Both the position numbers and the translations under genes were made by a program. Under the pieces are notes generated by a model, which worked only from the letters and a program-made list of their open reading frames with translations, ran no database searches and was not told where the DNA came from. 46,048 nucleotides of DNA from Ignavibacteriales bacterium (GTDB lineage: Bacteria; Bacteroidota; Ignavibacteria; UBA10030). Shown in pieces: positions 96 to 45,773 of this stretch. How positions within the stretch are numbered: position 1 is the stretch's first letter; each line of letters starts with the position of its first letter. Location: assembly GCA_031406095.1 (NCBI GenBank), contig JANOGR010000225.1:1-46048 (forward strand), read 5' to 3'.

Positions 96-311
96 TCAGG
101 TAGTCCATTGAGGTTGTGCGGAATTATTATCCTGCACATTCGTGCTTTTGCCGATCCTGATGTAATTGACGTCGCCCCTAATCACGGTGTTAAACCAAAC
201 GCTGCTGTCTTCACCAATTTCGACATCGCCGATGATTCTCGCACCTTCAGCAACGAACACCGACTGATGGATCTTGGGCGACTTTGATCCAAAGGGGATG
301 ATCGTGCTCAA
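96..311 (-). pseudogene. Gamma-carbonic anhydrase family (hexapeptide-repeat) protein, 3'-truncated
   Basis: PKIHQSVFVAEGARIIGDVEIGEDSSVWFNTVIRGDVNYIRIGKSTNVQDN is a typical gamma-CA/YrdA N-terminus. Likely TTG start at 311 overlaps the upstream TGA. Similarity stops after VQDN (~pos 126) and a stop follows 9 codons later in AT-rich sequence. Confidence 0.75.
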
Positions 312-1150
312 TCTCTTTCGACAAACTTGGGAGGGCGCCAGCCTTCTCTCTTCCAACTTTTCAGTTCCACCTTAATACTGCCCAGAATCACATTCATTCG
401 GGCAACGATTGGAATCCGGGCGTCATCATTACTGAACTGGCCGCTGAAACCGCCCGTAAGACCAAATACGCCCACATAGTCGGCCTTCCCGTCAAATTCA
501 ACCACTTCGACCGGATAGTCCACCGCACCGATTTCGACGTCCGTGACCGAATTCATGAAATTGATAAACGTGTTCACTTTTTTGCCTTCGATGAAGGTGG
601 GCACGTTCAACTGTTTTTTTTGCCGCACATGCTTTCGAGCATAGAAAAACACCGTAAACCCATCCTGACATTTTTCACCGACCGCGACCGTGTCAAGCGA
701 TTCAACCTGCAGCTCGTTATTCGGGAGTTTCTTCCCCTTGTCAAAAACCAGCCGGCTGCTGTCATACTGAAATGTAATTCTTCGGAATTTCGTTTCCTTC
801 GCCGTGCTATCTTCGCCAATCCAGGAATAGGAATACAGGTCCCCGTCCATTTCACTCGTAAATCGAATATGCAGGTCGACAAGCCAGGAAAGACTCGGGT
901 TGGAATCGATGATAGCCCGTGTTTTGAAAACCTCCCGCCCGTTTCGTTGCTCCTTTCCCACAAGGAGGATACGGATTGTCCCGACATTAAAGACAGAATA
1001 GCTGACGTTGTACTCGAGTTCTTCTCCTACCTGCAGCAAGGGATCGGGAACCAGAACAGAATCGCGTGAGATGTGCTTTGTGATGGAGGGCGGTATTGAT
1101 CCTGGGGCTGCAAACCAGGTCGTCAAAAACACAAGTAAGAATGGAATCAC
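308..1150 (-). CDS. DUF3108-like exported protein
   Basis: 280-aa ORF with an N-terminal hydrophobic signal, a GEELEYNVSY motif and a C-terminal SNDDARIPIVARMNVILGSIKVEL typical of DUF3108 proteins. Confidence 0.65.
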   Translation of the reverse strand: MIPFLLVFLTTWFAAPGSIPPSITKHISRDSVLVPDPLLQVGEELEYNVSYSVFNVGTIRILLVGKEQRNGREVFKTRAIIDSNPSLSWLVDLHIRFTSEMDGDLYSYSWIGEDSTAKETKFRRITFQYDSSRLVFDKGKKLPNNELQVESLDTVAVGEKCQDGFTVFFYARKHVRQKKQLNVPTFIEGKKVNTFINFMNSVTDVEIGAVDYPVEVVEFDGKADYVGVFGLTGGFSGQFSNDDARIPIVARMNVILGSIKVELKSWKREGWRPPKFVERD

Positions 1151-1176
1151 AAGCAGTGAATGGACTTGAGGTGTCC

Positions 1177-2811
1177 TCAGTTCAGCTTTGCAATTTTTTC
1201 AGCCTCGGGGAAGAGCGTCAAAGCCTTCTGAAATTGAACATCTGTTTCCAGGAGAACCAGAACCCTGCCTTCGGACCCAAAAAGCGCACGCGCTATCTCG
1301 GATTTTAGCCTGCCCCTGATCAACGGAAGATCTTTGTCGAATTCCTCTTGCTTGATAGCAACACCTTTGGAAGAGACGAACTCTCGAAAGCCCTTCATCA
1401 TTTCATCAGGAAGTTGATATTTCTGACTAAATTTCACGAGTGCATTCCCGTATTCCTGCCGCAACTTCAGGCCGGGACCCTCCATGTAGGTTTTGGTGTA
1501 GTCGAAAAACAGATTTCTTCGAAAGATGGTCAAGGTCAGGTCGGATATGGTCGACGCCTTAACAACATAGTCGGGTGTAATTCCTCCACCGCCCCGGACG
1601 GCGCGTCCTGCATGCGTCTTGAACACCGGTGCGAGCGAATCAGCTCCGTTTTTGCTGTCCATCTTGTGCTCGATATTTTCTCCTTCTTCCTCAGAACGCT
1701 CAAATGCTTCTCTTTGGTATTTTTCCTTATCCTTGCCCTCGTATGAGCGCTGGATCAAACGCCCGCTCGGGGTGTAGTAGCGTGCGATGGTCAGCCGAAA
1801 TGCTGAACCGTCGGCAAGTTTCCATTGTCTCTGCACCAAGCCTTTTCCAAAGCTCGGCTCCCCCACGATCAAACCGCGATCCCAGTCCTGAATTGCCCCC
1901 GCGACGATCTCGCTCGCACTGGCCGATGAATTACTGATCAAGACAATGAGGGGGATTTTTTCGTACTCTTCGCCGGTCTTGGCTGAATAGGATTCTTCGA
2001 AATCCGGCCGCCGAGCTTTGGTGTACACAATAGTTTTCGGCTTCTCCTTTGTGCCTCCGTCGAGAAACAGGTCGGACATTCTCACGGCCTCCTCGAGGTA
2101 TCCTCCCGGGTTTCCCCTCAAATCAAGAATGAGTCTCTTCATCCCTTCGCCGCGGAGCTTCTGGAGAGCACGTACCATCTCCGTACCCGTCTGCTCATTG
2201 AATCTGTTGACGAACAGATATCCGACCTCCTTGTTAATCATCAAGGCAGCCTCGACGCTGTACAGCGGAATCTCGTCGCGTATGATTTCAAAATCGATGA
2301 TTTCTTTTACGCCGGGCCTCACAATCGCAACTTTCACTTTTGTTCCTTTCGGACCCCGGAGCGTTCTCACGACCTTCGCGTCATCGAATCCGATGGCTGA
2401 GCTATCGTTGATCTTAACAATACGGTCATTCGAGAGAATTCCCAGCCGGGCCGACGGCCCACCGCCTACCGGCTCAAGAACTGTGATGGTGTCATTCAGT
2501 ACCCTGAATGAAATCCCAATACCCTCGAACTTCCCTCTAAAGTCTTCCGTGACTTTTTCGAACGCCTTCGGGGGAATGTAGACGGAATGGGGGTCGAGCG
2601 TGTTCAGCATACCCGTGATGGCGGATTCGGTCAGTTTTTGTGTGTCGACGTCATCTACGTAGTATTTTTCCGTAAAGCTCAGTACATCCTGGAACTTCTT
2701 GAGCTGCTCATAAATGTTGTCCGCGGAAATGAGCTTGTTGATCTCCATTCCCGTAAACAGACTCAGCGTTACGAAAGCCGCAACCGACCATCCTGAGAAT
2801 TGTTTCTTCAT
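1177..2811 (-). CDS. S41 family carboxy-terminal processing protease (PDZ + peptidase)
   Basis: LDPHS, FEGIGI, LDLRGNPGG, SASASEIVAGAIQD, FGKGLVQ and YYTPSGR motifs. ATG at 2811 (MKKQFSG, followed by a TM/signal) is preferred over the ORF-track start at 2853. Confidence 0.93.
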   Translation of the reverse strand: MKKQFSGWSVAAFVTLSLFTGMEINKLISADNIYEQLKKFQDVLSFTEKYYVDDVDTQKLTESAITGMLNTLDPHSVYIPPKAFEKVTEDFRGKFEGIGISFRVLNDTITVLEPVGGGPSARLGILSNDRIVKINDSSAIGFDDAKVVRTLRGPKGTKVKVAIVRPGVKEIIDFEIIRDEIPLYSVEAALMINKEVGYLFVNRFNEQTGTEMVRALQKLRGEGMKRLILDLRGNPGGYLEEAVRMSDLFLDGGTKEKPKTIVYTKARRPDFEESYSAKTGEEYEKIPLIVLISNSSASASEIVAGAIQDWDRGLIVGEPSFGKGLVQRQWKLADGSAFRLTIARYYTPSGRLIQRSYEGKDKEKYQREAFERSEEEGENIEHKMDSKNGADSLAPVFKTHAGRAVRGGGGITPDYVVKASTISDLTLTIFRRNLFFDYTKTYMEGPGLKLRQEYGNALVKFSQKYQLPDEMMKGFREFVSSKGVAIKQEEFDKDLPLIRGRLKSEIARALFGSEGRVLVLLETDVQFQKALTLFPEAEKIAKLN

Positions 2812-2912
2812 GAAATCCCTTTCAATCCAGCCAGAATTCTGTTCCCGCTCCACTCGAAGATAAAGACGTCAAAACACTCGTCCGTGTTACAGCCTCTCGA
2901 CCGATTCGCCAT

Positions 2913-2940
2913 AAAGTACGAGAAATCGAGCTAAAAACAA
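2913..2940 (-). promoter_or_regulatory. Putative sigma70-type promoter for the S41 protease operon
   Basis: Minus strand TTGTTT-16 nt-TACTTT in the intergenic gap. The same pattern recurs at other gaps in this window. Confidence 0.45.
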
Positions 2941-2945
2941 AGAAA

Positions 2946-5516
2946 CTAGAATGTGAGCTTCACTCCTATGCGAATTCGCCTCGGTTCATAATAAGCATTG
3001 GGGTCCTCCAGCTCACCCCCGATGCGGCCGTTCGAATCCACCCACCGGACATTCTTCTTGTTCAACAGGTTGCTGACATGCGCATACACGGTGAAAACAG
3101 TGCCATGAAGCTCGCCGAACCTGAAGTCCTTTGACAGCTTGATGTTCAACAAAGTCACATCAAACATCCTTGCATTATTGGGGACGAAAACATGCGTCGT
3201 ATCCAGCGGATTGTAACCATCCCTTGTCGGAAAGTACGTGTAGGGACGGGCGGAATTGTAGAGTAAAATCATGTTCGCCTGAATGTCGCCGACGAGCCGG
3301 AAGTCCGCATCAGCTTTGACAGTGTGTCGTTGGTCCCATGAAAGCGGAAAGGCTACCGGGGGCAATGGAAATCCCCATTGAGAGTAATTGATGGTCTGAT
3401 TCACAGATTCGCTGATTCCTTCGGTTGTCATGTACGAATAGGAAATGCTTCCTGCAATACGTTCATCGTGCTCCCGACTCAAAACAAACTCAAGTCCGGT
3501 TGCCGAGGCTTCAGCGTTGTTGACGTAAGAGGCAAAACCGTAGTCGCCGGCAAACTTGCTGTCGAATGGAACGAGCGTCTTGGTATCGATCTGTTTCGTG
3601 AATTTTTTTCGGAAGTAGGTGGCCGAAAACACCACATTCTCGTTGACACCATGCTTGAATCCCATTTCCCATGCAATCGAGCGTTCAGGTTCGAGGTCGG
3701 GATTGCCGGCGAGGACATTCTTAACCCCTTGACGCAGTTGCACGGGGTTGATCCCGGAATACAGATAGTCAAACAAGGGATACTGAAAATACTGGCCGAA
3801 ATTGGCAAAGAAAAAGCTTCGAGGGCCAACGGGCGCCGCAAACGAAATCCGGCCGCTTAACTGCTGCTTGAGAGTAGCTTTCGTCGTTTTGGTGGATACA
3901 AGATCGAACTCATTTGGGTTTGTTGGAATGGAATCGATAACCGGACGTTCTGCGGTCGGGTCGAGAAAATCCCAACGGAGCCCTACACTGAAATTCGACC
4001 CATCACGAACGAGCTCAACTTTGTCCTGAATATAGACGCTTCCTGAACGAGGTCGGTAGGCATACGTGTTGCTATAATTCAGGAGCGGGGCACCGGCGAT
4101 CGGTTTGCCAAAATACGTTGTTTGCGGCTCGTATTTGATGAGGTCGGAGAGGATATGATACTGGTTCAATTCCGCACCAATCTTGAAAATGTGATTTCGA
4201 AAGATCTCCGACGTAAGATCGCCTTTGGCCGTGTAGATTGTCTGGCGCGTATTCGCCCACCAGTTGCGGGTTCCACCTATGATATATCGCAGAAAGAAAT
4301 CATATTCGTAAGGCTGCAGCGAGAGAGCGTCTTTCGTATCGCCTATCCGTGTCTTCAATTGAAAAGCGCTGACGGTCATGGTGAAGAAAGTGTTATCACT
4401 AAGGGCGCTGGACAACGTTGTGCCAACCCGGTATGAATTGCGCGACCTTGTCGGGAGTCCTGTAAGGTTGAACCTCCAGCTAAACTCATAATCGCTCCAC
4501 GAGCTTACACTGTATATGCCCTGGGTCGTCAGCCTCGTTGTTGGGGAGAACACATAATCCAGTTTTGCAAAACCGCTCACCTCATGACTGATGGGCGAAA
4601 GGAAAAAATGCCGGAAGTCTTCCCACCAGCGGGTGTCCGACGTCAAAACATTGTTTGCCGAGAAGAAGTAGACTTCCCCGGGGACGACAGGACCGCTTGC
4701 GGTCAACTCAAGCTCCGCTGCCCTGTTTTGTTGTCTGTTCCACCCCTCGGGCAACCAGCTGTCACGTTCGTATCTCACAGAAAACTCTTGGCGGTCGTTT
4801 CCAGACTTTGTGATCAAGTTGATGACGCCTGACATGGCGTTCCCGTATTCTGCCTCGAATCCTCCCGTGTGAATCGACATGCTGGTGATGGAACTCTTTG
4901 GAATACTCGTCCCCAAGCCGCCTCCGATCACGTCCTGGATTGGGAGGCCGTCAACGAGATAGACCACTTCATTTGTCTTCCCGCCGCGAACATTTCCTTC
5001 CAGTGTTGTTCCGGGCTGGAGTAACAGGACTTCCTGAAATCTCCCGATGGGAAGCTTTTCAAGCTTGACTTCACCGACGCTGAACGCCGTTGCTGCCTGG
5101 TCCGTCTGAATAAGCGGCTTTTCGGCCCGGACTTCCACAGCCTCTACTTCAATCGCGGATTGCTCCAATTCAACGTCAAGTCGCGTACGTAAATCAGGCA
5201 AGATTGTGACTTTCTTCATGACAACAGGTTTATACCCGATAAGACTAAAGCGGACGTCGTACACCCCTGCCCGCACGTTGCCGACCCGATATTCCCCCGC
5301 AGTGTCTGTCACGGCACCCAGACCCGTTCCAATCAATATAACGTTGACTCCAATAAGCGTTTCCTGAGTCTGTTTGTCGATCACTCGTCCTTCTACGATG
5401 CCCGTGGTGCCTCGCATACCGATTGAAATGAACGAGTAAATTACGAAGAGCAAACAGGTCGCCAAATGGTTCCGAAGCTTCGTTGCACAGAGCTTATGGA
5501 TCCGACATCGGTTCAT
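2946..5516 (-). CDS. TonB-dependent outer-membrane receptor with N-terminal carboxypeptidase-regulatory-like domain
   Basis: GRVIDKQTQETLIGVNV, plug motifs VRGG..NEVVYLVDG and GGFEAEYGNAMSGVINLITKSG, NPDLEPE, and C-terminal PRRIRIGVKLTF. ATG 5516 overlaps the upstream stop (ATGA). Confidence 0.9.
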   Translation of the reverse strand: MNRCRIHKLCATKLRNHLATCLLFVIYSFISIGMRGTTGIVEGRVIDKQTQETLIGVNVILIGTGLGAVTDTAGEYRVGNVRAGVYDVRFSLIGYKPVVMKKVTILPDLRTRLDVELEQSAIEVEAVEVRAEKPLIQTDQAATAFSVGEVKLEKLPIGRFQEVLLLQPGTTLEGNVRGGKTNEVVYLVDGLPIQDVIGGGLGTSIPKSSITSMSIHTGGFEAEYGNAMSGVINLITKSGNDRQEFSVRYERDSWLPEGWNRQQNRAAELELTASGPVVPGEVYFFSANNVLTSDTRWWEDFRHFFLSPISHEVSGFAKLDYVFSPTTRLTTQGIYSVSSWSDYEFSWRFNLTGLPTRSRNSYRVGTTLSSALSDNTFFTMTVSAFQLKTRIGDTKDALSLQPYEYDFFLRYIIGGTRNWWANTRQTIYTAKGDLTSEIFRNHIFKIGAELNQYHILSDLIKYEPQTTYFGKPIAGAPLLNYSNTYAYRPRSGSVYIQDKVELVRDGSNFSVGLRWDFLDPTAERPVIDSIPTNPNEFDLVSTKTTKATLKQQLSGRISFAAPVGPRSFFFANFGQYFQYPLFDYLYSGINPVQLRQGVKNVLAGNPDLEPERSIAWEMGFKHGVNENVVFSATYFRKKFTKQIDTKTLVPFDSKFAGDYGFASYVNNAEASATGLEFVLSREHDERIAGSISYSYMTTEGISESVNQTINYSQWGFPLPPVAFPLSWDQRHTVKADADFRLVGDIQANMILLYNSARPYTYFPTRDGYNPLDTTHVFVPNNARMFDVTLLNIKLSKDFRFGELHGTVFTVYAHVSNLLNKKNVRWVDSNGRIGGELEDPNAYYEPRRIRIGVKLTF

Positions 5517-6128: not shown

Positions 6129-7664
6129 TCACTTCTCCGGCTTCATCTGCGGGAACAGAATCACATCCCGTATGGAATCCTGACCGGTCAGGAGCATCGT
6201 AAGCCGATCGACACCGATTCCGAGGCCAGCCGTTGGCGGCATTCCATACTCGAGTGCCCGTAGAAAATCCTCGTCCAGGATTTGAGCTTCCTCGTTTCCG
6301 AGAGCTCGCAGCTTCATTTGCTCTTCAAATCGAGCGCGTTGTTCGAGCGGATCATTCAACTCCGAGAAAGCATTGCAAATCTCCTGGCCATGCACAAAGC
6401 CCTCAAAGCGCTCAACGAGACCCGCTTCTGTCCGATGTTTCTTTGCCAGGGGAGACATTTCCTGCGGATGGTCCGTAATAAAAGTCGGCTGAACAATCCT
6501 CGGCTGGACCTTCTCTCCGAAGATCGTATCGACAATCTCGCCAGGTCCAGAACCCTTTTCAAGTTCAACGCCGATTTCCTTTGCGGTCTTACGAAGTTCG
6601 GATTCGGATTGTCCGCGCAAGTTTTTTCCTGTGAATTCCTGTATGGCCTGGAACATCGAGAGGCGCTTCCACGGAGGCATCAAATTGATTTCGGTCCCCC
6701 CGACGTTGACACTTGCCTTACCATTGACTGCGACGGCTATTTCAGAAATGAGCTGCTCGACCAGCTCCATCATCCATTGATAGTCCTTGAATGCGACGTA
6801 CAGTTCCATCATTGTGAACTCCGGGTTATGGGACCGATCCATCCCTTCATTCCGGAAATCCTTTGAAATTTCATACACGCCGTCAAGGCCTCCGACAATC
6901 AGCCGTTTGAGATACAGTTCATCCGCGATCCTCAGATAAAGATCCATATCGTGGGCGTTATGGTGCGTTTTAAACGGCCGCGCAAACGCGCCACCGTATA
7001 TCGGCTGGAGGGCCGGAGTTTCCACCTCAAGATAATTCCTTGCGTCAAGAAATTTTCTCATTGTGGTGACGATTTTTGCTCTTTTCACAAACACTTCACG
7101 CACATGCGCATTCGCAATCAGGTCGACATATCTTTGACGATAACGCAATTCCTTGTCCGAGAACGGGTCGAAAATCACTTTGTCGCCTTTTTCATCAATC
7201 TTTTCCTTCACGACCGGAAGAGGACGCAACGATTTCGCCAGGAGAATAAACTGTTGCGCATGAACGGACACTTCACCCATTTTCGTCCTGAAGACAAACC
7301 CCTTTACTCCAATAATATCCCCTATGTCTATCAGTCGGAAGGCCTCATACATCGCGCCAAGGTCGTCCTTCTTCAAATAGATCTGTATTTTTCCTTGTGG
7401 ATCCTGGATATGGCAGAAGGATGCCTTTCCCATTTTTCGGATTGAAGTAATCCTGCCGGCCACGGAAACGTTCGCTGGAGGAGCATTCTCCTGAAAAGAC
7501 CCGATAACTTCTTGCGAGAGATGCGTTCTATCATATTCATACGGATAAGGATTGATCCCCAACTTCCGCAGCTGGTCCAGTTCTTCCCTTCGACGAAGCA
7601 TCAGCACGTTCAAATCGTCGTGTTCGTGCTGGATCGGTGGGATGTTGTTTTCTTTTTGACCCAT
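6129..7664 (-). CDS. lysS: Lysine--tRNA ligase (class II)
   Basis: [62 protein letters not shown] and RDVILFP motifs. ATG at 7664 lies just after the malQ stop. Confidence 0.97.
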
Positions 7665-7669
7665 GTCGT

Positions 7670-9160
7670 TCAGTTCCGGCTGTTGGCCATTGTCAGGGAG
7701 TGCAACTTCGCCGAATGCTCTTCGATGAAAAAATCCCACGTGAACCGCCATTCCCAATTACCCGTCGATGTGCCGGGGTAATTCATCCTAGCTTCATTTC
7801 CCAGTCCCAAAACGTCCTGAATCGGAAAAATCGACGTGTCAGCTTTCGACTCGCTTGCGATTCGGATCATATCCCATTGAATGCTGGTCCCATCGCTTTT
7901 GGCGTATTCGAGAACGAATTTCTTCATCTTCGAATCGATTCTCCGGAACCAACCGACCGTCGTATCGTTGTCATGAGTTCCCGTATATACCATGCAACGC
8001 GTCTGATGGTTGTGCGGTAGGTTTGGGTGGTCGAGTCCGTCATCAAACGCAAATTGAAGTACCTTCATACCCGGCAATTCCAGTTTCTCGCGCAGCGCAG
8101 TCACATCGGGCGTGATAATTCCCAGGTCTTCGACGACAATCGGAAGACTGCCAAATGAATCGAGTATCTTCTCAAATAGGTCTTCGCCCGGGGATTTCAC
8201 CCACTGCCCTCGTTCTGCGGTCCTCTCATTTGCTGGCACCTCCCAATAAGCGAGGAACCCACGGAAGTGATCGATGCGGACTATATCAAACAGAGAAAAC
8301 GAATGTCGAAGGCGCTCTTTCCACCAGCGATATCCGGATTGCTTCATCACATCCCATCGGTAAAGCGGATTCCCCCACCGCTGCCCGGTTGGACTGAAGT
8401 AGTCAGGCGGCACACCAGCGACAACAGTCGGATAGCCGTGTTCGTCAAGAAAAAACATGTTGGGGTTCGACCATACGTCAACACTGTTATGTGCCACGAA
8501 AATCGGGATGTCGCCAATAATCTGAACTCCTTTGCCGTTCGCATAGGACTTCAGGCTCATCCACTGTCTGAAAAAAGACCATTGGACAAACTTGTGAAAT
8601 TGAATCTGCTCCCGAAGATCGGCTTCGACCTTTTTCAGAGCCGTTCGGTCCCGCTTGACGATGTCCGAGTTCCAATTGCACCAGAGAGCTCCTGCGTGTT
8701 CATCGTACAGCGCCATAAACAGAGCAAAATCGTTCAGCCAGGAAGAATGGGATTCACAGAATCGCTCATACTCCGTTTTATCTGCGATGAGTCCGTGATC
8801 CCAAAAATTGTGGGCGGCCTTTTTGAGCCTGGGGATTCTGAAGCTTGAAGCTGCCGCGTAATCAACTTTGTGCGGATGAAATGCTGGCGGGGACTCTATG
8901 TCCTTCTTCCCAAGCCAACCCCGCTCCACAATCTCATGGAGGTCAACAAACAGCGGACTGCCGGCGAATGCAGAGGGACTCATATACGGCGAATTCCCCA
9001 TGCCGGTGGGGCCCAACGGGAGCATTTGCCAAAGAGACTGCTTCGCAGCGACGAGCCAGTCCACAAACCGGAATGCATCCTGGCCAAAATCCCCGCATCC
9101 ATTCGGCCCCGGGAGTGAGGTTGGGTGAAGCAAAATTCCACTGCTGCGTTTGAATTTCAT
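7670..9160 (-). CDS. malQ: 4-alpha-glucanotransferase (amylomaltase, GH77)
   Basis: [52 protein letters not shown] and YTGTHDNDT motifs. Confidence 0.96.
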
Positions 9161-11120: not shown

Positions 11121-11836
11121 TAGTTGAGACTCCGCATGATTGAAACTTCACCAAACGGTTCAGCCTGGCGAAGGATGAGTTTCTTTGCACGGATGAGTTC
11201 CAGCAAGGCGATAAACGTCACCACCACATAGATTTTTTCGGTCATGCTCTTTACAAGCTCAAAAAAAGTCGCTTCCGACCGCCGGGAGAAGAACTCTGTG
11301 AGATATGCGATCTGTTCATCGATCGTGACATTGAGTTTGAAAATTTCATGGACGAACTTCTTCGGCATTCTGTCGACGGCAAATTTGAACGACGCGATCA
11401 AGTCGAAAAGAGTTACGTCCTTCATGATGTCTTCAGCAGTCTCTTCCACCGAAATGTGTTCATCAGCGGCCCGGTATCCTCTTGAGAATATTTGTCGCCG
11501 CTCGTCTTCGCGGCGGGACATTTCCATAGCAACTTCTTTAAAACGCTTGTATTCGACAAGACGTTTGATGAGGTTTGCCCGCGGATCCTCTTCTTCTGCC
11601 TCATCAGGTTCGGGCGGCAGGAGCATTTTCACTTTGATCTGCATTAACTCCGCGGCCACCACCATGAATTCGCCCGCAACTTCGAGGTCCAACTCTTGCA
11701 TGTAATGCAGGTACTCCATAAACTCTTTCGTGATCCTCGCGATGGGAATGTTGTAGATGTCCAGTTCATCGCGCTTGATGAAGAACAGCAGAAGATCCAT
11801 CGGACCTTCAAAATTATGAAGTTTGACGCTATACAT
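11120..11836 (-). CDS. scpA: Segregation/condensation protein ScpA (kleisin)
   Basis: FEGPMDLLL, ELDIYNIPIARIT, DPRANLIKRLVEYKRFKE and VVTFIALLEL motifs. Confidence 0.95.
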   Translation of the reverse strand: MYSVKLHNFEGPMDLLLFFIKRDELDIYNIPIARITKEFMEYLHYMQELDLEVAGEFMVVAAELMQIKVKMLLPPEPDEAEEEDPRANLIKRLVEYKRFKEVAMEMSRREDERRQIFSRGYRAADEHISVEETAEDIMKDVTLFDLIASFKFAVDRMPKKFVHEIFKLNVTIDEQIAYLTEFFSRRSEATFFELVKSMTEKIYVVVTFIALLELIRAKKLILRQAEPFGEVSIMRSLN

Positions 11837-37578: not shown

Positions 37579-37718
37579 AATGTTGAGCTAGAAAGACTTC
37601 AGGATGAGTGACGAGAAGCTATGGAGAAAGTGTCGGGGCGATGAGAACGTGCCTAATGTAGTCTTTGACCCACCGAATTGCAACGGAAAACATTCCCAGC
37701 CTGGTGGATAACTTTTTG

Positions 37719-37747
37719 TTGCTCATTTCAGCAAGAATGCCTATTTT
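37719..37747 (+). promoter_or_regulatory. Putative sigma70-type promoter for the GH38-like gene
   Basis: TTGCTC-17 nt-TATTTT about 40 nt upstream of ATG 37788. Confidence 0.45.
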
Positions 37748-37787
37748 CTTCCACTCTTTTCTAAAAACCGCAAAAAATCTGGAAAAA

Positions 37788-40700
37788 ATGACAGTCGATT
37801 TGTTGGATCAAATTCTCCCGCACGTCAAGGACGCGATCTATCCCGAGCGGCGCCCACTGCCAATCTGGAAATTCAAAGACGGAGACGTTCCGGCTGCCCA
37901 GAGTTCTTCCTTACGCTACACGGCCTGGCCGTCAACTCAAATTCCCCACCAATGGACCGGCGATAACAAGACGATTTGGTTCCGTCAGGAGGTGACCATT
38001 CCTCCAGACTTCATTGGCAAACCCCTCGCAGTTTTGCTGGATATACCGGAAGCGCTGCTTTTCGTTGACGGCAAGTTATTCCAGGGCCTCGATGAGCATC
38101 ACAGAGAATCGTTTCTGACCGAAAAAGGCAGGTCGAATCAGAGCTTCCTGTTCGCCATCCGGGCTTCCAGCGGGAGAAAACGCGGGATCAACTCCTTCAG
38201 CAACGCAGAACTTGTCGTCATCAATCGGACCGCGAGGGCATTGTATAACGGGTTAACAACGTTGCGGGAACTCGATAAGCTTGCAAGTCACGGGTCGCAG
38301 GAATCGAAAGACGTCCGTGAGTTGATTCGCCGAACACTCATTTTTCTGAAATACTTCAAGCCGGAAGGCGAGGAATACCCGAACGCCATCGGACGCGCAC
38401 ATAAATTCCTGACAACGTCAGTCGAGAGCGAGTTCAAAACCACGATTCCAGGCATGGTGCATCTTATCGCACAGTCGCGTTTGAATCCAGCCTGGCTTTG
38501 GACTATTCAAGAAACAAAACACAAGGCCGCAGCAACGTTCAGCAATGCGCTTCGTGTCCTGGAAGAATTCCCGGGGAGTACTTTTACACAAGGCCAGGCG
38601 TTTCTCTACGAGTTAGCGGGCCGTTCGTATCCTGACGTTCTCCGTCAGGTCAAGCTCAGGGTAGCCGAAGGACGATGGGAACCGGCGGGTTCCATGTGGG
38701 TTGAGCCCGACTGCAATATCCCTGGCGGAGAATCACTCATCAGGAACATCCTTCTGGGAAAAAAATATTTCAGAGCCGAGTTTGGCGTTGATTCGAGCGT
38801 TGCCTGGCTGCCGGATTCCCCCGGGTTCGCGTCAAACCTTCCACAGATCCTTCGCAGGTCCGGCTTTTCCTTCTTTTTCACGTCAAAGCCGCTCAAGAAC
38901 GACACAACGAAATTCCCACACAACTCTTTTTGGTGGGAAGGCCTCGATGGAACAAGGATTCTCAGCCACGTCCCGCCCGTCGGGGCCGAAGGGCAGTTGG
39001 AGCCCAAAGACATCAAGAAAACGTGGGATGATTTCACTCAGAAAGATGAAACTCCCATGGCCGCACAGACTTTCGGTTTTGGCAATGGGGGTGGCGGAAT
39101 TTCAGCAGACCAAATTGAAACCGGTAAAGTGATTGAAACAATTTCCGGGTTACCAACTTCAAAGATATCGAACGCAAGAGATTTTTTCACCGCTCTGGAA
39201 CTGCAGGCGAAAGCTTTGCCCGTTTGGGCCAAGGAACTGTATGTTGAGAAGAACAGGGGCACGTATTCGACTCAAGCCTGGATAAAACATGAGAATCGCA
39301 GGTGCGAGGGCCTCCTCTATCAGAGTGAGCTGTATGCATCTCTTGCCGCCATCATGGGAAAGTCGCCGCAGGTTCGCCGATACCCCGTGAAAGAACTCGA
39401 GAGAGCATGGAGTCTGTTGATTCAGAATCAAAGCAAGGAGATCGTCTCCGGCACATCCATCTCCGATGTGTACAAGGACTCACGGAACGATTTCGCTGAG
39501 ATTCACACCCTTGGCGACAAAATTATTGACCGGTCTCTCAGCGCGTTTGTGGAGCCTTCAAGGAAAACCAAGGATCTTTCCTTCACGGCGTTCAATGCTC
39601 TCGGACATGAAAGAAATGAATACATCGAAGTGTCGTTTGAATCTTCGGAAAAGCTTTTCATGGTTAGAGACAATGAGGGAAACGTTGTCGAGAATCAGTT
39701 TCTTGACCGCTCGCGCGGCACTGTGACCTTGCTTTGTTACCTTCGGAGCATTCAGCCATTTTCCTCGAAATCATTTGTCGTAACTCCCATTCCAGGAAAA
39801 GCCGAGGCTCCGGAGCCATGGAAAACTTCGAATAGGATCATTGAATCCCCTTTCTACAGGATTCGACTGGATAAGAAGGGCGGCATCAGCTCCATCTATG
39901 ACAGACAATTGCGGCGCGAACTTGTGGAGCGCGGCAAACGGGCAAACCTCCTGCAGACCTTCAAAGATGTTCCCGAACAGGCAGACGTGTGGGAACTTGA
40001 ACCGGGGTTCGACCGGCATAAGCTGGACTCATTCGTCCTGAGATCCTTCAAATTCGCCGAAACCGGGCCGCTTCGGGCACGTATCCGATTCGAATACCGG
40101 TCTGAGCGAGGCTCATCGATTATCCAGGACATGATGCTCTATCACCAGGAGAAGCGTATCGATTTCGCCACCCGGGTCAGCTGGCGGGAACAACGAACTT
40201 TGCTCAAAGCTGTTTTTCCACTGAACATCAAGTCACACGTCGCGACGTTCGAGACTCAGTTTGGCGTTATCGCTCGAACAACAAGACCGAGAGAAGACAT
40301 CGATAAGGCGAAGTTTGAAGTGCCGGTTCAACAGTGGTTCGACTTTTCAGAACCGAAACTCGGCGTGAGCATTCTGAACGACGGCAAGTACGGATGCGAT
40401 GCGCTGCACAACGTGTTGCGGCTTACGCTCATACGGTCTCCTCTCTACCCTCACCCAAACGAGCCATGGAGACTGAACGACGACAAATGCACCGACCAGG
40501 GAGAGCATAAGTTCACCTATTCGCTCTACCCGCATGCCAGTGACTGGAAAAAAGGCCGGACGATCCAGCAGGCACGGTCGCTGAACATACCCCTGAAGCT
40601 CGTTGCACACTCCGTCGGAACGATGCGCTCAGTCCCTCTCATGCTGTCCAAATCCAATGTCATTGTCAGTTGCCTGAAGAAGGCTGAGGATTTGGACGAC

Positions 40701-40898
40701 TTTGTCCTTCGGCTGTACGAGTCGTTCGGCGAGTCAACAGATTGTGCTGTCAAATTCGGATTCACGGTAAAATCGGCCGTTGAATGCGATTTGATGGAAA
40801 ATCACTTGAAGGAAATGAAGGTTTCCAAGGGAAAACTGGCGCTGAGGTTCAAACCGTTCGAGATCAAAACGTTGAAGTTGGTGTTCAGGAAGAAATGA
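37788..40898 (+). CDS. Glycoside hydrolase family 38 (alpha-mannosidase)-like protein with degenerate active site
   Basis: AWLW, GRWEPAGSMWVEPDCNIPGGESLIR, WLPD, FWWEGLDGTRIL, ELY.E..RGTY, LNDGKYG, RLTLIRSP, DQGEH.FTY and LRLYE motifs. Metal-binding and acid/base residues are substituted (see findings). ATG 37788 preferred. Confidence 0.9.
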   Translation: MTVDLLDQILPHVKDAIYPERRPLPIWKFKDGDVPAAQSSSLRYTAWPSTQIPHQWTGDNKTIWFRQEVTIPPDFIGKPLAVLLDIPEALLFVDGKLFQGLDEHHRESFLTEKGRSNQSFLFAIRASSGRKRGINSFSNAELVVINRTARALYNGLTTLRELDKLASHGSQESKDVRELIRRTLIFLKYFKPEGEEYPNAIGRAHKFLTTSVESEFKTTIPGMVHLIAQSRLNPAWLWTIQETKHKAAATFSNALRVLEEFPGSTFTQGQAFLYELAGRSYPDVLRQVKLRVAEGRWEPAGSMWVEPDCNIPGGESLIRNILLGKKYFRAEFGVDSSVAWLPDSPGFASNLPQILRRSGFSFFFTSKPLKNDTTKFPHNSFWWEGLDGTRILSHVPPVGAEGQLEPKDIKKTWDDFTQKDETPMAAQTFGFGNGGGGISADQIETGKVIETISGLPTSKISNARDFFTALELQAKALPVWAKELYVEKNRGTYSTQAWIKHENRRCEGLLYQSELYASLAAIMGKSPQVRRYPVKELERAWSLLIQNQSKEIVSGTSISDVYKDSRNDFAEIHTLGDKIIDRSLSAFVEPSRKTKDLSFTAFNALGHERNEYIEVSFESSEKLFMVRDNEGNVVENQFLDRSRGTVTLLCYLRSIQPFSSKSFVVTPIPGKAEAPEPWKTSNRIIESPFYRIRLDKKGGISSIYDRQLRRELVERGKRANLLQTFKDVPEQADVWELEPGFDRHKLDSFVLRSFKFAETGPLRARIRFEYRSERGSSIIQDMMLYHQEKRIDFATRVSWREQRTLLKAVFPLNIKSHVATFETQFGVIARTTRPREDIDKAKFEVPVQQWFDFSEPKLGVSILNDGKYGCDALHNVLRLTLIRSPLYPHPNEPWRLNDDKCTDQGEHKFTYSLYPHASDWKKGRTIQQARSLNIPLKLVAHSVGTMRSVPLMLSKSNVIVSCLKKAEDLDDFVLRLYESFGESTDCAVKFGFTVKSAVECDLMENHLKEMKVSKGKLALRFKPFEIKTLKLVFRKK

Positions 40899-40991
40899 AG
40901 GAGGGATTTGGCATTCCCGCGGAGGAGGAAATTCCTGTGCGAACTTCGCTATTAAGTGAGCAAAATTTCTTATGAAAACAAACCGCAAAAA

Positions 40992-41027
40992 CTCCTCCCC
41001 TTTTAGGGGAGGATGAAAGGTGGGGTC
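40992..41027 (-). repeat. Hairpin repeat (left arm) flanking DUF559 gene
   Basis: Minus strand GACCCCACC-TTTCA-TCCTCCCCT-AAA-AGGGGAGGA: a tail plus a 9-bp stem. Confidence 0.75.
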
Positions 41028-41031
41028 TACT

Positions 41032-41430
41032 TCAAGACCCACCTTTGTCCCGAATCCTAGCGCGCACTTGTTCGAGAATATCATCTGCAAGAGCGTCGGT
41101 TTGCTCCATCACTTCCGAGTTCGAATATCTTAAGACTTTGATACCCTGTTGTTCTAAATCTGAGTCACGTTCCTCATCATTCCGAGTCCCCTCATCGTTA
41201 TAGTGTCCAGCTCCATCTACTTCAACGTTGAGTTTAGCTTCGTGGCAATAGAAATCCAGAACGTGCCTGCCGATTGGAAACTGTCTTCGGAATTTCACTC
41301 CAAGCTGATTGTCGCGAAGACATGACCACAGTTTCTTTTCTGCATCTGTCATTCCTCGTCGCAAAGTACGAGCAACCGAAACTAAACGGCTTGAATATTT
41401 CGGGAAGTGTCTTTGCAAAAGCGACCTCAC
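41032..41430 (-). CDS. DUF559 / Vsr-like endonuclease domain protein
   Basis: ARTLRRGMTDAEKKLW..LR, KFRRQFPIG, DFYC, VEVDG..H and RD..L...GIKVLR motifs. The exact start is uncertain. Confidence 0.9.
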   Translation of the reverse strand: MRSLLQRHFPKYSSRLVSVARTLRRGMTDAEKKLWSCLRDNQLGVKFRRQFPIGRHVLDFYCHEAKLNVEVDGAGHYNDEGTRNDEERDSDLEQQGIKVLRYSNSEVMEQTDALADDILEQVRARIRDKGGS

Positions 41431-41493
41431 CCTGCCTACCGAACGGAAAGCGTTCGTCCGGCAGGCAGGCTACCCTCTCCTAAGAGGAGAGGA
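41423..41493 (+). repeat. Hairpin repeat (right arm) flanking DUF559 gene, interrupted by a nested CCTGCC...GGCAGG palindrome
   Basis: GACCTCAC-[CCTGCCTACC-GAACGGAAAGCGTTCGTCC-GGCAGGCAGG]-CTAC-CCTCTCCT-AAG-AGGAGAGG-A, inverted relative to the left arm. Confidence 0.72.
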
Positions 41494-41560
41494 AAAGTTT
41501 AAAGTAGAATTCGAATTTTCGCCAGCCCGTCGGCGGTGTGGGATTTCGGGAGTAATAACT

Positions 41561-42856
41561 TCACTTCAACAGCATCATCCGCTTTACGCTGCTGAAGCTT
41601 GATTCCCTCGACTCACCTGTCACTGCGATGCGATAGAAATAAGCCCCTGTGCTGAGGTTCCTCCCATCCAGTTTCGCCTCGTAAAACCCCGGACCCTGTT
41701 CTGCTTCAACGAGTGTCGCCACTTCTTGGCCCAGCAGGCTGTACACCTTCAGTGAAACACGGTATAAGCTAGAACTTCCCGGTATCGAGTAGCGGACCAT
41801 GGTCTCCGGGTTGAATGGGTTGGGATAGTTCTGATAAACAATAAACTCTGACGGTCCTGATTGAAGCAATTCTGCCACTTTCGTTGCGCTTTGTTGTAAG
41901 AACCATGCTGTTGCTGTCGGATCGCTCTTGAAAAAATTTAGCAGCAGGTCCGCAACCTTTTGGCGGCCGCTTGTTGATGGATGTGTCCCGTCGCTCTGTA
42001 AATCGCTGCACTGCCAGGTCAGCCCATCAATTCGTGGTGTCGTCCCATCGGCCCATAGATAAGGACCCCACGCGAGCCAGGGTGCCTGAGGATTGGAACC
42101 TGTTGCTGCCAGGGTAGAATCACCGTTGATTTGTTTTTCTATGAGCCACTTCACGGCAAATCCGGATTCATATGCATAGGGCTCAGGATTCAACGTTGTC
42201 GACGCGTATCCCGCATAGATTCTGCTGGAATAGTACGCGATCTTGATGTTCGGATACTTGGCTTTCAGGTTTCGCGCGATTGACTCATAGTTGGCTTGCA
42301 GCATTTGGGCATGAACCGGAAATGCCTGAGTTGGACCGGCGTTAGCTCCTTTCACCCAAGCTGCCTGAACCTGTTGACCCGTTACTCCTGCAGCCGCGAG
42401 TCGCTGGTCAAAAACAGTCCAGAAATTGGCATTCGGGTCTGAAATGACCGAAGCCGTTTGTCCGCCCTGAGCCCCGTCGACTATAACAAGCTGTGGATTC
42501 TTTGAGGGGTCGGCATTTGCAATCGAAACGAATGTCGAGAATTCCTGAGTGGTATTCGACATCCCGATCGAAACCAGAACAATCTTCCCGTTCGTAAGAT
42601 CCTCAACGCCGCTGGAGTTTAATGGCTTGATTTGCTGGACGAGTGCACGGCCAATGGAGTCATGAGTCGCGGGACGCTGATTCTGTCCGTTTGGGTAAAG
42701 TCCGCCGGCGTAATTTTTGTATAAACCCGTCCCAAGTTCGGTGAGCGGCTTAAACCCCACCGATGGTATCGAACAGTTTTGCCGCGCAACAAGTGTATCG
42801 TATTGCAGGAAGGCAACAATTGTAAAAAAGATGAATGTGACTTTTCTCCGCCTCAT
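41561..42856 (-). CDS. Secreted SGNH-hydrolase-like protein with T9SS-type C-terminal domain
   Basis: Signal peptide, VSIGMSN / GAQGG / DGTHP resembling SGNH blocks I, II and V, and C-terminal QNYPNPFNPET...TGAYFY...KRMMLLK. Confidence 0.75.
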   Translation of the reverse strand: MRRRKVTFIFFTIVAFLQYDTLVARQNCSIPSVGFKPLTELGTGLYKNYAGGLYPNGQNQRPATHDSIGRALVQQIKPLNSSGVEDLTNGKIVLVSIGMSNTTQEFSTFVSIANADPSKNPQLVIVDGAQGGQTASVISDPNANFWTVFDQRLAAAGVTGQQVQAAWVKGANAGPTQAFPVHAQMLQANYESIARNLKAKYPNIKIAYYSSRIYAGYASTTLNPEPYAYESGFAVKWLIEKQINGDSTLAATGSNPQAPWLAWGPYLWADGTTPRIDGLTWQCSDLQSDGTHPSTSGRQKVADLLLNFFKSDPTATAWFLQQSATKVAELLQSGPSEFIVYQNYPNPFNPETMVRYSIPGSSSLYRVSLKVYSLLGQEVATLVEAEQGPGFYEAKLDGRNLSTGAYFYRIAVTGESRESSFSSVKRMMLLK

Positions 42857-43004: not shown

Positions 43005-45773
43005 CTAATGATGTACGGCCACCTTCTGCTCTTTGAAAGCATCTTCAAACGAAATCCAAACCGATTTGGCCGTTGCATCAAAACGCCAGCCAGTACCTTT
43101 GCCATCGGATGTACGTGGAACTAACTTGCCGTTCATGGTGATGGAGGAGGGCTGCTTCTGAGCATCGTTCACCTTCAGCAAGAGCGTTCTCTTCGACGGC
43201 CTGTAGTTTCCTTGTGGGCTTGAAAGGACAATCTCGGTTGATTTATCCGAGCTTTTGAGGAAGACGGTACGCTGCGAGTATTCTCCCTGTGCATAGCCCA
43301 GGCTTTTCCCATCATCCTCATAAACAACACTCGTTGCTTCAATCGCTGGATAGATCTCGAACGTCAACGGCTCTGTTGTTGTCTGGTCTGAATACTGCAA
43401 GCCCTGCTGCGTGGCAATTATGGCTCCTCCTTTTGCAAAAAGAGGAATGCGGTCAATCGGAGCATCCGCTGTGATCCATTTAGGACCAACGAGTTTTTCT
43501 CCCGTCCAGTAGTTGTACCACTCGCCTTTAGGCAGGTAAACTCCTTTTGTCGTTTTTCCGGGTTCAAGCACGGGAGCCACAAGCAGGGCATCGCCAAACA
43601 TGAACTGCCTGTCTGTCCAGTAAGCCGTTTCATCATCGGGAAAATCGAAAAACATCGGCCGCATAATGGGAATCCCAGTAGTGGAAGCGAGATAAAACTG
43701 CGTGTACACGTAGGGGAGGAGTTTATACCGCAGCTCGATGGATTTCTTGTTGATCGCCTCGAATTTCGGTCCGTACGACCACGGCTCCTGGTCTGCACTG
43801 CCGATTTCTGTGTGCGTCCGCATCAAAGGCATAAAGGCGCCAAGCTGCAGCCACCTCGCATACAGCTCCCCGCTCGGGCTCCCCACAAACCCTCCGATAT
43901 CCGTGCCAACAAACGGCTGACCCGAGATGCTCAGGTTCAAGCACATTGGCACAGCCATTTCCAGATGCTCCCAGCTGCTGATATTGTCGCCCGTCCATGC
44001 CGAAGCGTACCTGTTTCCTCCGGCATAATTTGCCCGCGTCAACACGAAGGGGCGCTCGTTTGGCCGGAGTCTCGACACGCCTTCGAACGTCCCGCGCGCC
44101 ATTTGCATGCCATACACGTTGTGATTCTTGCGATGGTCGGTTTTCCGTCCCTCGTCGTCGTGCATCACGTTCAAATCGAACGTCTTCATCGGCACATCGA
44201 ACACAGCCGGCTCGTTCATGTCGTTCCAGAACCCTTTCACACCGTCATCCAGAAGTCCTTTGTAGAGCGTTCCCCACCAGTCGCGGGCTTCTGTTTTTGT
44301 GAAATCCGGAAACACGCAATCGCCTGGCCAGACTTTCCCCACGTAGTTCCGTCCATCGGGCCATTTTACGAAATGATCTCCCTTCACGCCTTCGTCGTAC
44401 ACCCAGTAGCCCGGCTCGTTCTTTATTCCAGGGTCGATGATCACCACGACTTTGAATCCATCTTTCGACAGGTCATCGATCATTTTCTTCGGATTCGGAA
44501 AGCGCGTCTTGTCCCACGTGAAGCACCGATACTCATCCATATAATGGATATCCAGATAAATGACGTCGCATGGGATTTGTTTCTTTCTAAACGTTTTGGC
44601 AATCTCGCGTACGCGGGATTCCGGATAGTAGCTGTAACGACACTGCTGGTAAGCGACAGCCCATTTGGGCGGCAGCGGCATTTTCCCCACAAGCTCCGAG
44701 AATTGCCTGAGCACCGCTTTGGGCTCGGGGCCATACATGAAATAATAGTTCAATTCCCCGTCAACAGCTCCAAACGAGTATTGTTCCTGGTGCTCCTTCC
44801 CCATGTTAAACGTCGAGTAGTACGTGTTGTCGAAAAAGATTCCGTAGGTCTTACCTTTGCGTGTGCCGTAGAAAAACGGAATCGTTTGGTACAGCGGATC
44901 TGTATCGGCTCTGTAAGCGGGTATATCCGTGTTCCACATGGACATCGTTTTCCATTTTCGGTTCAAAGATCCAGCCTTCTCGCCGAAGCCAAAGTACTGC
45001 TCGTCGAGGGGCATCGTTTTCCAAACACCGACTTGATTTCCCGACCATGCCATACCTTTTCCGGGTTCATCCTGGTTCACGAGGTTCCCTTGTGCATCAT
45101 AGAACGAGAGCCTGCATGGGTTTTTCGTCACACGTAGTGTGAGTTTTGAGGTTTTCAGCACAACCTCGCTGCTCCCGTCATCGACTGTGAAGGTTCGTGG
45201 TCCAAGATCGGCTTTTACAACCGCCCACGACCTGTCTTCAGCGAATTGGCCATCCTGATCCATTCGAACGCGTAACACCGATTGATCCAAAACTGTAATC
45301 CGGACTTTTGCAGGCGGTGCGGAAAGAATAATGCCATCACCTGTTTTCTCCACGGCTGACACATTGCCGATCGATGTCCATTGAGCAGAAACAGGAATCC
45401 AGACAAAAACACTGATAGCAAGAGTAAGGAAACACTGCATTAAATAGGGATTGTCATTCCGTCGGATTTTAAGACGCCAGCCCGCCTTCGGTCTGGCGGG
45501 GAATCCAGAACGGGTTTGATATGAGCGTCTAGCCCAAGTCGGCGCGAGTGACGATAGGATTCGGGTTCTGGACTCCCGCCTGCCTGTCCGGTAGGCAGGC
45601 TTACAATCCGCGGGAGTGACAAGTTTTTTCTTGTTTGTCATTCCCGTCAGCCTGCCGAACAGGCAGTCTAAAAATCCGCGGGCCCGACTAAGTCCGCCGT
45701 AAGCGGACGTCGTCGGGCGGGCATGACAAGGTGTTTTTTGGGTACTTTGCATCGCTTCATTGAAGGGTTTCAT
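43005..45773 (-). CDS. Glycoside hydrolase family 31 alpha-glucosidase; 5' end carries an in-frame repeat insertion (alternative start at 45440)
   Basis: YFGFGEK, DPLYQTIPF, IYLDIHYM, GFWNDMNEP (nucleophile), WTGDN (acid/base), DIGGF and QEPW motifs. The signal h/c-region is LTLAISVFVWIPVSA|Q. Confidence 0.93.
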   Translation of the reverse strand: MKPFNEAMQSTQKTPCHARPTTSAYGGLSRARGFLDCLFGRLTGMTNKKKLVTPADCKPAYRTGRRESRTRILSSLAPTWARRSYQTRSGFPARPKAGWRLKIRRNDNPYLMQCFLTLAISVFVWIPVSAQWTSIGNVSAVEKTGDGIILSAPPAKVRITVLDQSVLRVRMDQDGQFAEDRSWAVVKADLGPRTFTVDDGSSEVVLKTSKLTLRVTKNPCRLSFYDAQGNLVNQDEPGKGMAWSGNQVGVWKTMPLDEQYFGFGEKAGSLNRKWKTMSMWNTDIPAYRADTDPLYQTIPFFYGTRKGKTYGIFFDNTYYSTFNMGKEHQEQYSFGAVDGELNYYFMYGPEPKAVLRQFSELVGKMPLPPKWAVAYQQCRYSYYPESRVREIAKTFRKKQIPCDVIYLDIHYMDEYRCFTWDKTRFPNPKKMIDDLSKDGFKVVVIIDPGIKNEPGYWVYDEGVKGDHFVKWPDGRNYVGKVWPGDCVFPDFTKTEARDWWGTLYKGLLDDGVKGFWNDMNEPAVFDVPMKTFDLNVMHDDEGRKTDHRKNHNVYGMQMARGTFEGVSRLRPNERPFVLTRANYAGGNRYASAWTGDNISSWEHLEMAVPMCLNLSISGQPFVGTDIGGFVGSPSGELYARWLQLGAFMPLMRTHTEIGSADQEPWSYGPKFEAINKKSIELRYKLLPYVYTQFYLASTTGIPIMRPMFFDFPDDETAYWTDRQFMFGDALLVAPVLEPGKTTKGVYLPKGEWYNYWTGEKLVGPKWITADAPIDRIPLFAKGGAIIATQQGLQYSDQTTTEPLTFEIYPAIEATSVVYEDDGKSLGYAQGEYSQRTVFLKSSDKSTEIVLSSPQGNYRPSKRTLLLKVNDAQKQPSSITMNGKLVPRTSDGKGTGWRFDATAKSVWISFEDAFKEQKVAVHH
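45429..45761. mobile_element. 333-nt composite non-autonomous repeat element (three TGTCA-type hairpin units with nested micro-palindromes)
   Basis: Units at 45452-45508, 45568-45621 and 45636-45728 share an 8-bp or longer stem and a 9-nt GGATT(T/G)T(A/T)A loop once nested inserts are removed. Excising the element joins MKPF to LTLAISVFVWIPVSAQ. Confidence 0.7.

Follow-up and report, generated by a model that had tools for sequence, protein, structure and literature searches.

A DUF559 nuclease gene with inverted class II triplex-type repeat ends: a candidate selfish cassette in an Ignavibacteriales genome

The BoxC/PIT/TM elements are class II intrastrand-triplex repeats whose description goes back to 1992 (Bergler 1992 and Hoyne 2000, as cited in Holder et al. 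2015, PMC4666352). The E. coli representatives (TMECO), for which triplex formation has been examined by CD or NMR and around which instability has been reported, follow the consensus CCCTCNCCC-N3-6-GGGNGAGGG-N3-GGGNGAGGG, and Holder et al. regard the origin and spread of the repeats as unknown, reporting no mobility gene, integrase or transposase near TM sites; an endonuclease is never mentioned in the consulted sections of their paper (PMC4666352). In two other systems a gene and its surroundings are arranged in a comparable way. Repetitive extragenic palindromic (REP) sequences and their doublets (REPINs) are hairpin repeats that stand inverted around a small gene for a REP-associated tyrosine transposase (RAYT) and are also dispersed without the gene, singly or in doublets. 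The Vsr-like EDxHD homing endonucleases, such as I-Bth0305I, are encoded by selfish genes inserted in other genes (PMC3239194, PMC2677866). The present work concerns a locus comparable with each of these systems, located in a 46,048-nt contig of an Ignavibacteriales bacterium (assembly GCA_031406095.1, contig JANOGR010000225.1, positions 1 to 46,048), hereafter the window. At positions 40989-41499, a gene for a 132-amino-acid DUF559 protein lies between two inverted hairpin modules. We consider it somewhat probable that this unit is a small selfish cassette, a DUF559 nuclease gene with inverted class II triplex-repeat ends.

The flanking modules fit the published class II architecture and are predicted to fold as triplexes. 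Their segments follow the same order (pyrimidine arm, loop, purine arm, short loop and a third strand of G, T and A), and the module core nearly equals the published one, the 7-nt core of all three segments agreeing with the TMECO consensus. As in the published family, modules occur singly or in inverted pairs and are largely intergenic. The TMECO consensus has 9-nt stems and a second loop of 3 nt, whereas the stems here are 8-9 nt long with A/T ends, and the second loop is GTA (3 nt) in one subtype (T modules) and 5 nt in the other (C module). Unlike the published repeats, the modules here form the ends of a DUF559 gene. An earlier sequence-only reading of the window had described the lone 132-amino-acid gene between convergent genes, flanked by inverted copies of one motif, all of which are found where it placed them; it missed the membership of the repeat in the BoxC/PIT/TM family.

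The C module (40993-41027, plus strand) points towards the gene and was identified both as an inverted repeat and by a strict triplex-rule detector, which requires 7 perfect stem pairs and 7 perfect triads; it passes with 7 triads and no mismatch. Its hairpin joins a pyrimidine arm at 40993-41001 to a purine arm at 41005-41013 (9 bp, 100% complementary, 3-nt loop), and the third strand GGTGGGGTC follows at 41019-41027 after a 5-nt linker (GACCCCACC in minus-strand reading). The T module lies on the minus strand at the other end. Its hairpin (41474-41492; arms 41474-41481 and 41485-41492, 8 bp, 100% complementary, 3-nt loop) makes up, together with a conserved AAAGTT-like outer flank at 41493-41499, the segment 41474-41499; this flank is common to the six T modules examined in the genome. 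The T-module third strand GGTGAGGTC (GACCTCACC in plus-strand reading) occupies 41423-41431 on the minus strand and holds the GTG start codon of the DUF559 gene. The purine arm AGGAGAGG is followed by GGTGAGGT in the T module, and the purine arm AGGGGAGG(A) by GGTGGGGT in the C module. When the tail is aligned antiparallel with the purine arm, all of its bases satisfy the purine-motif triplex rule, G standing on G-C and A or T on A-T; the tail is a mirror copy of that arm, in the manner of a triplex third strand. The two modules differ by one triad, and the C/T change covaries in all three segments. The sequence-only reading had correctly noted the compensating change between the two arms and the presence of the tail, which it did not recognise as a mirror third strand covarying with the stem. 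Both hairpins of its motif are exact, and the long right-hand spacer that it included turns out to be a foreign palindrome of 39 nt nested between the T-module hairpin and tail. With these 39 nt set aside the T module of the window passes the strict detector, as do its five other copies in the genome; in the T copies on contigs C376, C228, C311 and C374 the tail begins 3 nt after the hairpin.

Single-stranded DNA folding of both ends gave z scores of -4.1 to -5.1, and 0 of 200 shuffles folded equally well. The tail 9-mer by itself is unremarkable (3 occurrences in the window against 0.66 expected). A search of Rfam with positions 40000-42500 returned nothing at E 5 or better.

The gene and both ends recur as a unit at unrelated sites. 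The genome of the window (G000; 2.89 Mb, 393 contigs, completeness 100%), in which the window is contig C197, has four DUF559 loci. The protein encoded by the copy on contig C376 is 87% identical to that of the window, and the nucleotide alignment covers 40989-41437 at 86% and 41470-41499 at 93% identity, with similarity lost beyond these ends. Since the alignment begins in the outer flank of the T hairpin and ends shortly beyond the C hairpin, the unit was defined as 40989-41499; read on the minus strand, it comprises the outer flank, the T module, the DUF559 gene, a second hairpin, the C module and an outer flank. The C376 copy is laid out as T module, gene, C module, spacer and second T module. 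Between the two paralogs the ratio of non-synonymous to synonymous divergence (dN/dS) is 0.23 at a synonymous divergence (dS) of 0.32, and the gene is under purifying selection. The two further DUF559 lineages of the genome (C244:100-270 and C213:2700-2960), 44% and 38-46% identical to the window protein, have module subtypes of their own. A stop interrupts the C213 gene, but five gene-less copies of its module subtype exist.

The same genome also has dispersed T and C modules that accompany no gene. Of its 18 strict modules, five are no more than 200 bp from one of the four DUF559 loci. The remaining ones stand without the gene, singly (C311, C374) or in pairs (C228, C390), and belong to the T and C subtypes and to a third subtype, which also flanks the broken gene on C213. 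Module pairs in this genome enclose DUF559 or nothing, and no other cargo was seen. Two of the gene-less sites have unusual surroundings. At C374:2318-2500, a lone T module stands between the real start of the downstream gene, which may be UvrA-like as read from its sequence, and a diverged duplicate of about 60 nt of the 5' end of that gene; the upstream duplicate is a short open reading frame ending in the module tail, and may have been left behind when the gene recombined with a foreign allele. On C228, direct repeats of about 28 nt (positions 49-76 and 340-368) flank a segment of about 290 bp with a gene-less C/T module pair.

Across phyla, modules are concentrated at the ends of DUF559 genes. 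We examined 80 loci, the best 80 of 248 relatives found in species-representative genomes, which span Chloroflexota, Betaproteobacteria, Bacteroidota, Verrucomicrobiota, candidate phyla and others. The stretches up to 200 bp from the gene add up to 31,391 bp and contain 146 strict modules, or 4.65 per kb. The other 616,487 bp contain 58, or 0.094 per kb, which makes the nearby density about 49 times higher; the distant density outside long open frames (those of at least 100 amino acids being masked) is 0.154 per kb, a coarse control with only 32 kb unmasked. The enrichment beside DUF559 genes that the sequence-only reading had anticipated is therefore strong. At least one module is present at 62 of the 80 loci, and 39 have modules on both sides. 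The nearest modules form inverted pairs in 28 of 37 cases, 19 of them in the (+,-) layout of the window with tails towards the gene and 9 in the (-,+) layout with tails outward. The pairing of a type A with a type B module, reported for E. coli pairs, was tried on the flanking modules and rejected, 19 pairs being heterotypic and 20 homotypic (of 39), as expected by chance.

As the 80 loci share words of the query peptide (e.g. DFYCHEAK), the count was repeated on 17 loci chosen by Pfam match in three relatives: 11 have a module, and 19 modules lie in 6,600 bp near the gene against 6 in 38,286 bp elsewhere. The stems at these 11 loci are quite different, and each is mirrored by its own tail. 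Among asymmetric 7-nt cores, 10 tails mirror the arm, 2 repeat it directly and 4 do neither. In sliding 7-mers, the windows of which are not independent, 157 were mirror-only against 56 direct-only. Whole arms separate the mirror and direct rules poorly (108 against 67 of 242), since the majority of stems come close to mirror symmetry.

The modules also co-occur with the protein family, a correlation that the sequence-only reading had proposed to examine. Among 41 relatives, 22 have both the module pattern and PF04480, 4 the pattern alone, 5 PF04480 alone and 10 neither (odds ratio 11, Fisher p 0.0017, Spearman 0.62; as kin, these genomes are not independent samples), and a control with the reversed pattern gave 0 in all 41 genomes. 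In E. coli K-12, TMECO #9 (1,351,204-1,351,239) lies 168 bp past the 3' end of ycjD, a gene annotated as DUF559. About 45 nt between ycjD and this repeat (NC_000913.3, positions 11205-11480 of the extracted locus L132) repeat the 3' end of ycjD and look like a remnant of a second DUF559 gene, and an imperfect pyrimidine/purine hairpin overlaps the ycjD stop. Plasmids and phages, considered as vehicles, rarely carry a relative: there are hits in 40 of the 72,556 plasmid records and in 2 of the 50,697 records from phages. Two of three plasmid loci examined have flanking modules, and the third has shorter G5-type modules missed by the detector; on a Deinococcus plasmid, the DUF559 gene stands between paaD and paaZ with perfect inverted modules.

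Comparisons of sites with and without the cassette show the same unit in further contexts. A genome of another genus (G009) carries the same C/T-ended cassette on its contig C48, and at the orthologous site of the window genome (contig C263) the flanking genes abut, their stop and start being 4 nt apart by our reading of the alignment. The G009 gene has 71% nucleotide identity to that of the window, against 92% (over 39 nt) and 96% (over 26 nt) for the end modules. The site of the C376 copy measures 609 bp in the window genome and an unrelated 219 bp in G001, a relative of the same genus; these 219 bp contain a palindrome resembling the family nested in the window. In G030, which belongs to the same order as the window genome, a gene for a 1027-amino-acid glycosidase (contig C29, positions 1003-4086 of locus L134, minus strand) contains a related DUF559 cassette in frame, of about 147 amino acids at residues ~257-403. 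Only a loop is replaced by the cassette; the glycosidase gene is uninterrupted in 11 relatives, where its two parts lie 3-36 nt apart. The tails of this cassette point outward, opposite to the window layout. In G015, a gene for a type I restriction R subunit (1270 amino acids; contig C78, positions 286-4098 of locus L133, minus strand) carries an in-frame DUF559 cassette and a separate in-frame module, and the M-subunit gene (7384-8985, minus strand) carries a lone in-frame module. Inverted ends are present at the cassettes examined, no target-site duplication is evident at the junctions examined, and no transposase is found in the cassette.

The enzyme is assigned with confidence to its family. 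PF04480 (DUF559) matches the 132-amino-acid open reading frame at E 1.3e-33 and 115.6 bits, against a curated Pfam cut-off of 20.6; the NCBIfam model PRK09767 (DUF559) matches at E 2.5e-21, with 76 bits against an equivalog cut-off of 218. The sequence also matches 3hrl, a solved DUF559 protein in the Protein Data Bank (E 3.2e-16). A structure model (mean predicted local distance difference test, pLDDT, 83.6) has 3hrl as its best fold match (E 2.2e-8, template-modelling (TM) score 0.89), and the second-best fold is the catalytic domain of the homing endonuclease I-Bth0305I (3r3p; E 2.1e-4, TM score 0.79). Vsr folds match only at E 0.14-0.18, below both. Residues D59, E70, D72, H76 and D85 are kept in the window protein and are invariant in sets of 32 and 81 relatives, which are biased in being partly retrieved through one of the conserved motifs. 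The resemblance to I-Bth0305I thus extends to a related catalytic fold in addition to the selfish insertion into other genes. Unlike the EDxHD homing genes, the cassette is intergenic here and in frame in relatives, with no intron or intein features; unlike I-Bth0305I, it has inverted repeat ends of its own and encodes a 132-amino-acid protein that has no extra DNA-binding region.

These results lead us to a tentative mechanism for the spread of the cassette. The nuclease would recognise the module, in folded or duplex form, and would nick or cut there or close by; the site would be repaired by recombination with a copy that bears the cassette, the modules serving as homology, and the gene or the modules would in this way be copied into new sites. 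Such a homing-like route would require no transposase. We propose cutting of the module and homing-like copying on three grounds: the fold is related to that of a homing endonuclease, the association is tight and specific to one cargo, and the ends are better conserved than the gene. We hold both steps to be possible but rather less than an even bet. The element is an old one in this lineage and almost quiescent, and the C hairpin, with its T-run on the minus strand, probably doubles as the terminator of the DUF559 gene. The sequence-only reading had proposed a nuclease-repeat mobile system. Its observable parts, a recurring unit of gene and flanks and dispersed gene-less copies, are present in the data, and the recognition and spreading of the repeats by the nuclease are what we infer. 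Among the points checked, nothing that it had named as speaking against its proposal was found.

Several observations weigh against the reading of the unit as a selfish cassette. Modules are missing from 18 of the 80 loci, among them all 9 with Pedobacter in their titles, and the orientation of the modules is variable, the nearest ones having the same orientation in 9 of 37 cases (6 (-,-) and 3 (+,+)). The 80 loci have peptide words in common with the query, and the kinship of the 41 relatives limits the weight of their statistics. Four of the 26 repeat-positive relatives have no DUF559 (one of them with 8 modules), 5 of the 27 DUF559-positive relatives have no match to the pattern, and only 1 of the 23 TMECOs in E. 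coli K-12 lies near ycjD. The gene-less pairs in the window genome have their tails outward, opposite to the cassette, and are therefore not simple internal deletions of it. A terminator role is plausible for the C hairpin. The genome has only 18 modules, and the copies are old, as seen from a dS of 0.32 between the paralogs and 0.34 for the sister-species ortholog at the window site. No clean empty site was found in relatives at the window junction, between the genes for an alpha-mannosidase of glycoside hydrolase family 38 (GH38) and for a protein with a type IX secretion system (T9SS) sorting tail, where the sequence-only reading had suggested looking for one; apart from G009, no synteny was found within the stretches compared. 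Metagenome contigs (from 4 runs of 3 studies) bridge the cassette junctions at the window site in runs of two studies, and no empty allele was seen among them. A single skip of 452 nt in one contig (31-nt side, 88% threshold) was considered as an empty allele and rejected, since the flanks differ, and a 39-nt skip in these contigs corresponds to the C376-type copy. No RNA data set was among those listed with the locus.

The alternative that fares best, though we judge it unlikely, is that DUF559 is a host-retained gene comparable to RAYT, usually present in few copies, whose enzyme disperses only short repeats in the manner of REPINs; acting in cis, it would make repeats accumulate next to the gene, which itself would rarely move. 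The window copy conforms to this expectation. In G001 (locus L006) the GH38 site is likewise occupied by the cassette; 68 of 74 residues are identical, dN/dS is 0.10 and dS 0.34, which makes the window copy an old one passed on vertically within the genus. Immediately beyond its C hairpin the L006 cassette contains an additional stretch of about 55 nt (positions 250-335), bounded by the short direct repeat GAGGAG, and one change in a tail breaks a triad. A host-retained gene would further agree with the purifying selection on DUF559, with the different layouts of gene-less pairs and cassette, and with several relatives that have far more repeats than genes (e.g. 68 against 6, and 43 against 4). 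The occurrence of the gene with both ends at unrelated sites in G000 and G009 argues against a gene that stays in place, as do the precise in-frame insertions into genes that are uninterrupted in 11 relatives. The likeness to REP/REPIN-RAYT systems extends to the different gene lineages of one genome having their own repeat subtypes. The enzyme differs in being a Vsr-like PD-(D/E)xK nuclease and not a HUH Y1 transposase, the module differs from REP in its third-strand segment, and here gene and ends turn up together at new sites, some of them within other genes. The RAYT-like genes of the window genome itself have no such modules (0 of 6 loci with one within 200 bp), and the label of a non-HUH, REP-like element given by the sequence-only reading is a fair one.

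Less likely again is an ordinary Vsr-type repair or housekeeping function for DUF559, with the repeats independent of it or serving only as terminators or regulatory hairpins. Vsr, DUF559 and DUF2726 fall in one superfamily cluster (PMC3424549), and Caulobacter VsrA, a protein with a DUF559 domain, is functionally tied to a cytosine methyltransferase (PMC12907096). DUF559 genes lacking repeats do exist, and the C hairpin, which has a T-run after it on the minus strand, scores as terminator-like. The window protein departs from Vsr in having no match to the Pfam Vsr family (PF03852) at E 0.001 or better, its only Pfam matches being PF04480 and a sub-threshold PF18741, as well as in the lower rank of the Vsr fold. 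The window genome, at 100% completeness, has 0 matches to the C5-cytosine methyltransferase family (PF00145), which is present in 7 of the 41 relatives, all 7 among the 27 DUF559-positive ones. The absence of both a Vsr match and a methyltransferase weakens a repair role like that of VsrA. An enrichment of 30- to 49-fold, on both sides of the gene and with 28 of 37 pairs inverted, would be unexpected for unrelated repeats, and the end modules are more conserved than the gene that they enclose.

It is improbable that the modules are sites for an unlinked recombinase, integron-cassette-like or Xer-like, with DUF559 as merely the usual cargo: the C376 layout does resemble a cassette bounded by repeated sites, but no module pair in the window genome has other cargo, its RAYT-like genes carry no modules, and the consulted sections of Holder et al. 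report no integrase or transposase near TM sites (PMC4666352). That two unrelated GC-rich terminator hairpins flank a small gene by chance is scarcely credible, for although hairpins are frequent at convergent gene ends, the hairpin pattern occurs 2 times in the 46-kb window against 0.00 expected (100 shuffles), the 18 strict modules of the genome compare with 0, 0 and 0 in three mononucleotide shuffles, and the same ends are present on the paralog and in other genera.

A wider proposition, which we put forward as a speculation with well under even chances, is that DUF559 proteins including E. coli YcjD are the partner enzymes of BoxC/PIT/TM repeats: Vsr-fold nucleases that would recognise the folded triplex-hairpin module and spread the repeats and their own gene across phyla by nicking and recombinational copying, even in frame into housekeeping and restriction genes. 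They would then constitute mobile elements of a kind that lacks transposase, integrase, intron and intein alike. Such a partnership would give a role to DUF559, a very widespread domain with no settled function, and would supply a candidate enzyme for the repeats. It would add a nuclease-plus-repeat selfish system independent of HUH transposases, would point to a protein that may read non-B DNA structure, and would account for the strange in-frame insertions seen in genes for restriction and housekeeping functions. Both the repeats and the protein family were already known; no paper linking DUF559 to these repeats was found in the literature on DUF559, ycjD, Vsr-like mobile elements, BoxC and, since 2015, bacterial intrastrand triplexes, or in the consulted sections of Holder et al.

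The DUF559 gene (41032-41430, minus strand) is placed between two convergent genes. The GH38 alpha-mannosidase gene (37665-40898) is on the plus strand and the gene with the T9SS sorting tail (41561-42856) on the minus strand, the Por_Secre_tail match of its protein being 26.3 bits, slightly below the cut-off of 27. In G009, a RAYT-like gene and an outer-membrane protein (OMP) gene separate the GH38 and T9SS orthologs, and no DUF559 is present there. Within this stretch (locus L123, contig C50, 32600-34800), the RAYT-like gene occupies 344-907 on the plus strand and the OMP beta-barrel gene 1096-1824 on the minus strand; the former matches the NCBIfam model REP_Tyr_transpos at E 8e-18 with 64.7 bits, under the cut-off of 80. 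Small selfish genes seem to be drawn to this GH38/T9SS intergenic slot.

The 3' end of the DUF559 gene is also covered by the second hairpin of the cassette (41016-41046), in which 41016-41024 pairs with 41038-41046 over 9 bp at 100% complementarity. The segment 41038-41046 is an extra copy of the tail that overlaps the last DUF559 codons and pairs with the C-module tail, in agreement with the sequence-only reading, which had paired it with the left arm; the stop codon (41032-41034) is in the loop. This hairpin is part of the minimum-free-energy DNA fold, and an equivalent sequence exists in the C376 copy.

The nested palindrome of the T module (41431-41469; 15-nt arms, 87% complementary) belongs to another repeat family, whose 12-mer CCTGCCTGCCGG has 21 matches in the genome, and it is missing from the paralogous cassette on C376. 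Metagenome contigs carry it in several other contexts, with loose ends at 41431 and 41470/41471. The core of this family reads GCCTGCCTGCCGG ... CCGGCAGGCAGGC, and a second copy in the window, at 45588-45600 within 45578-45600, lies upstream of a gene of glycoside hydrolase family 31 (GH31).

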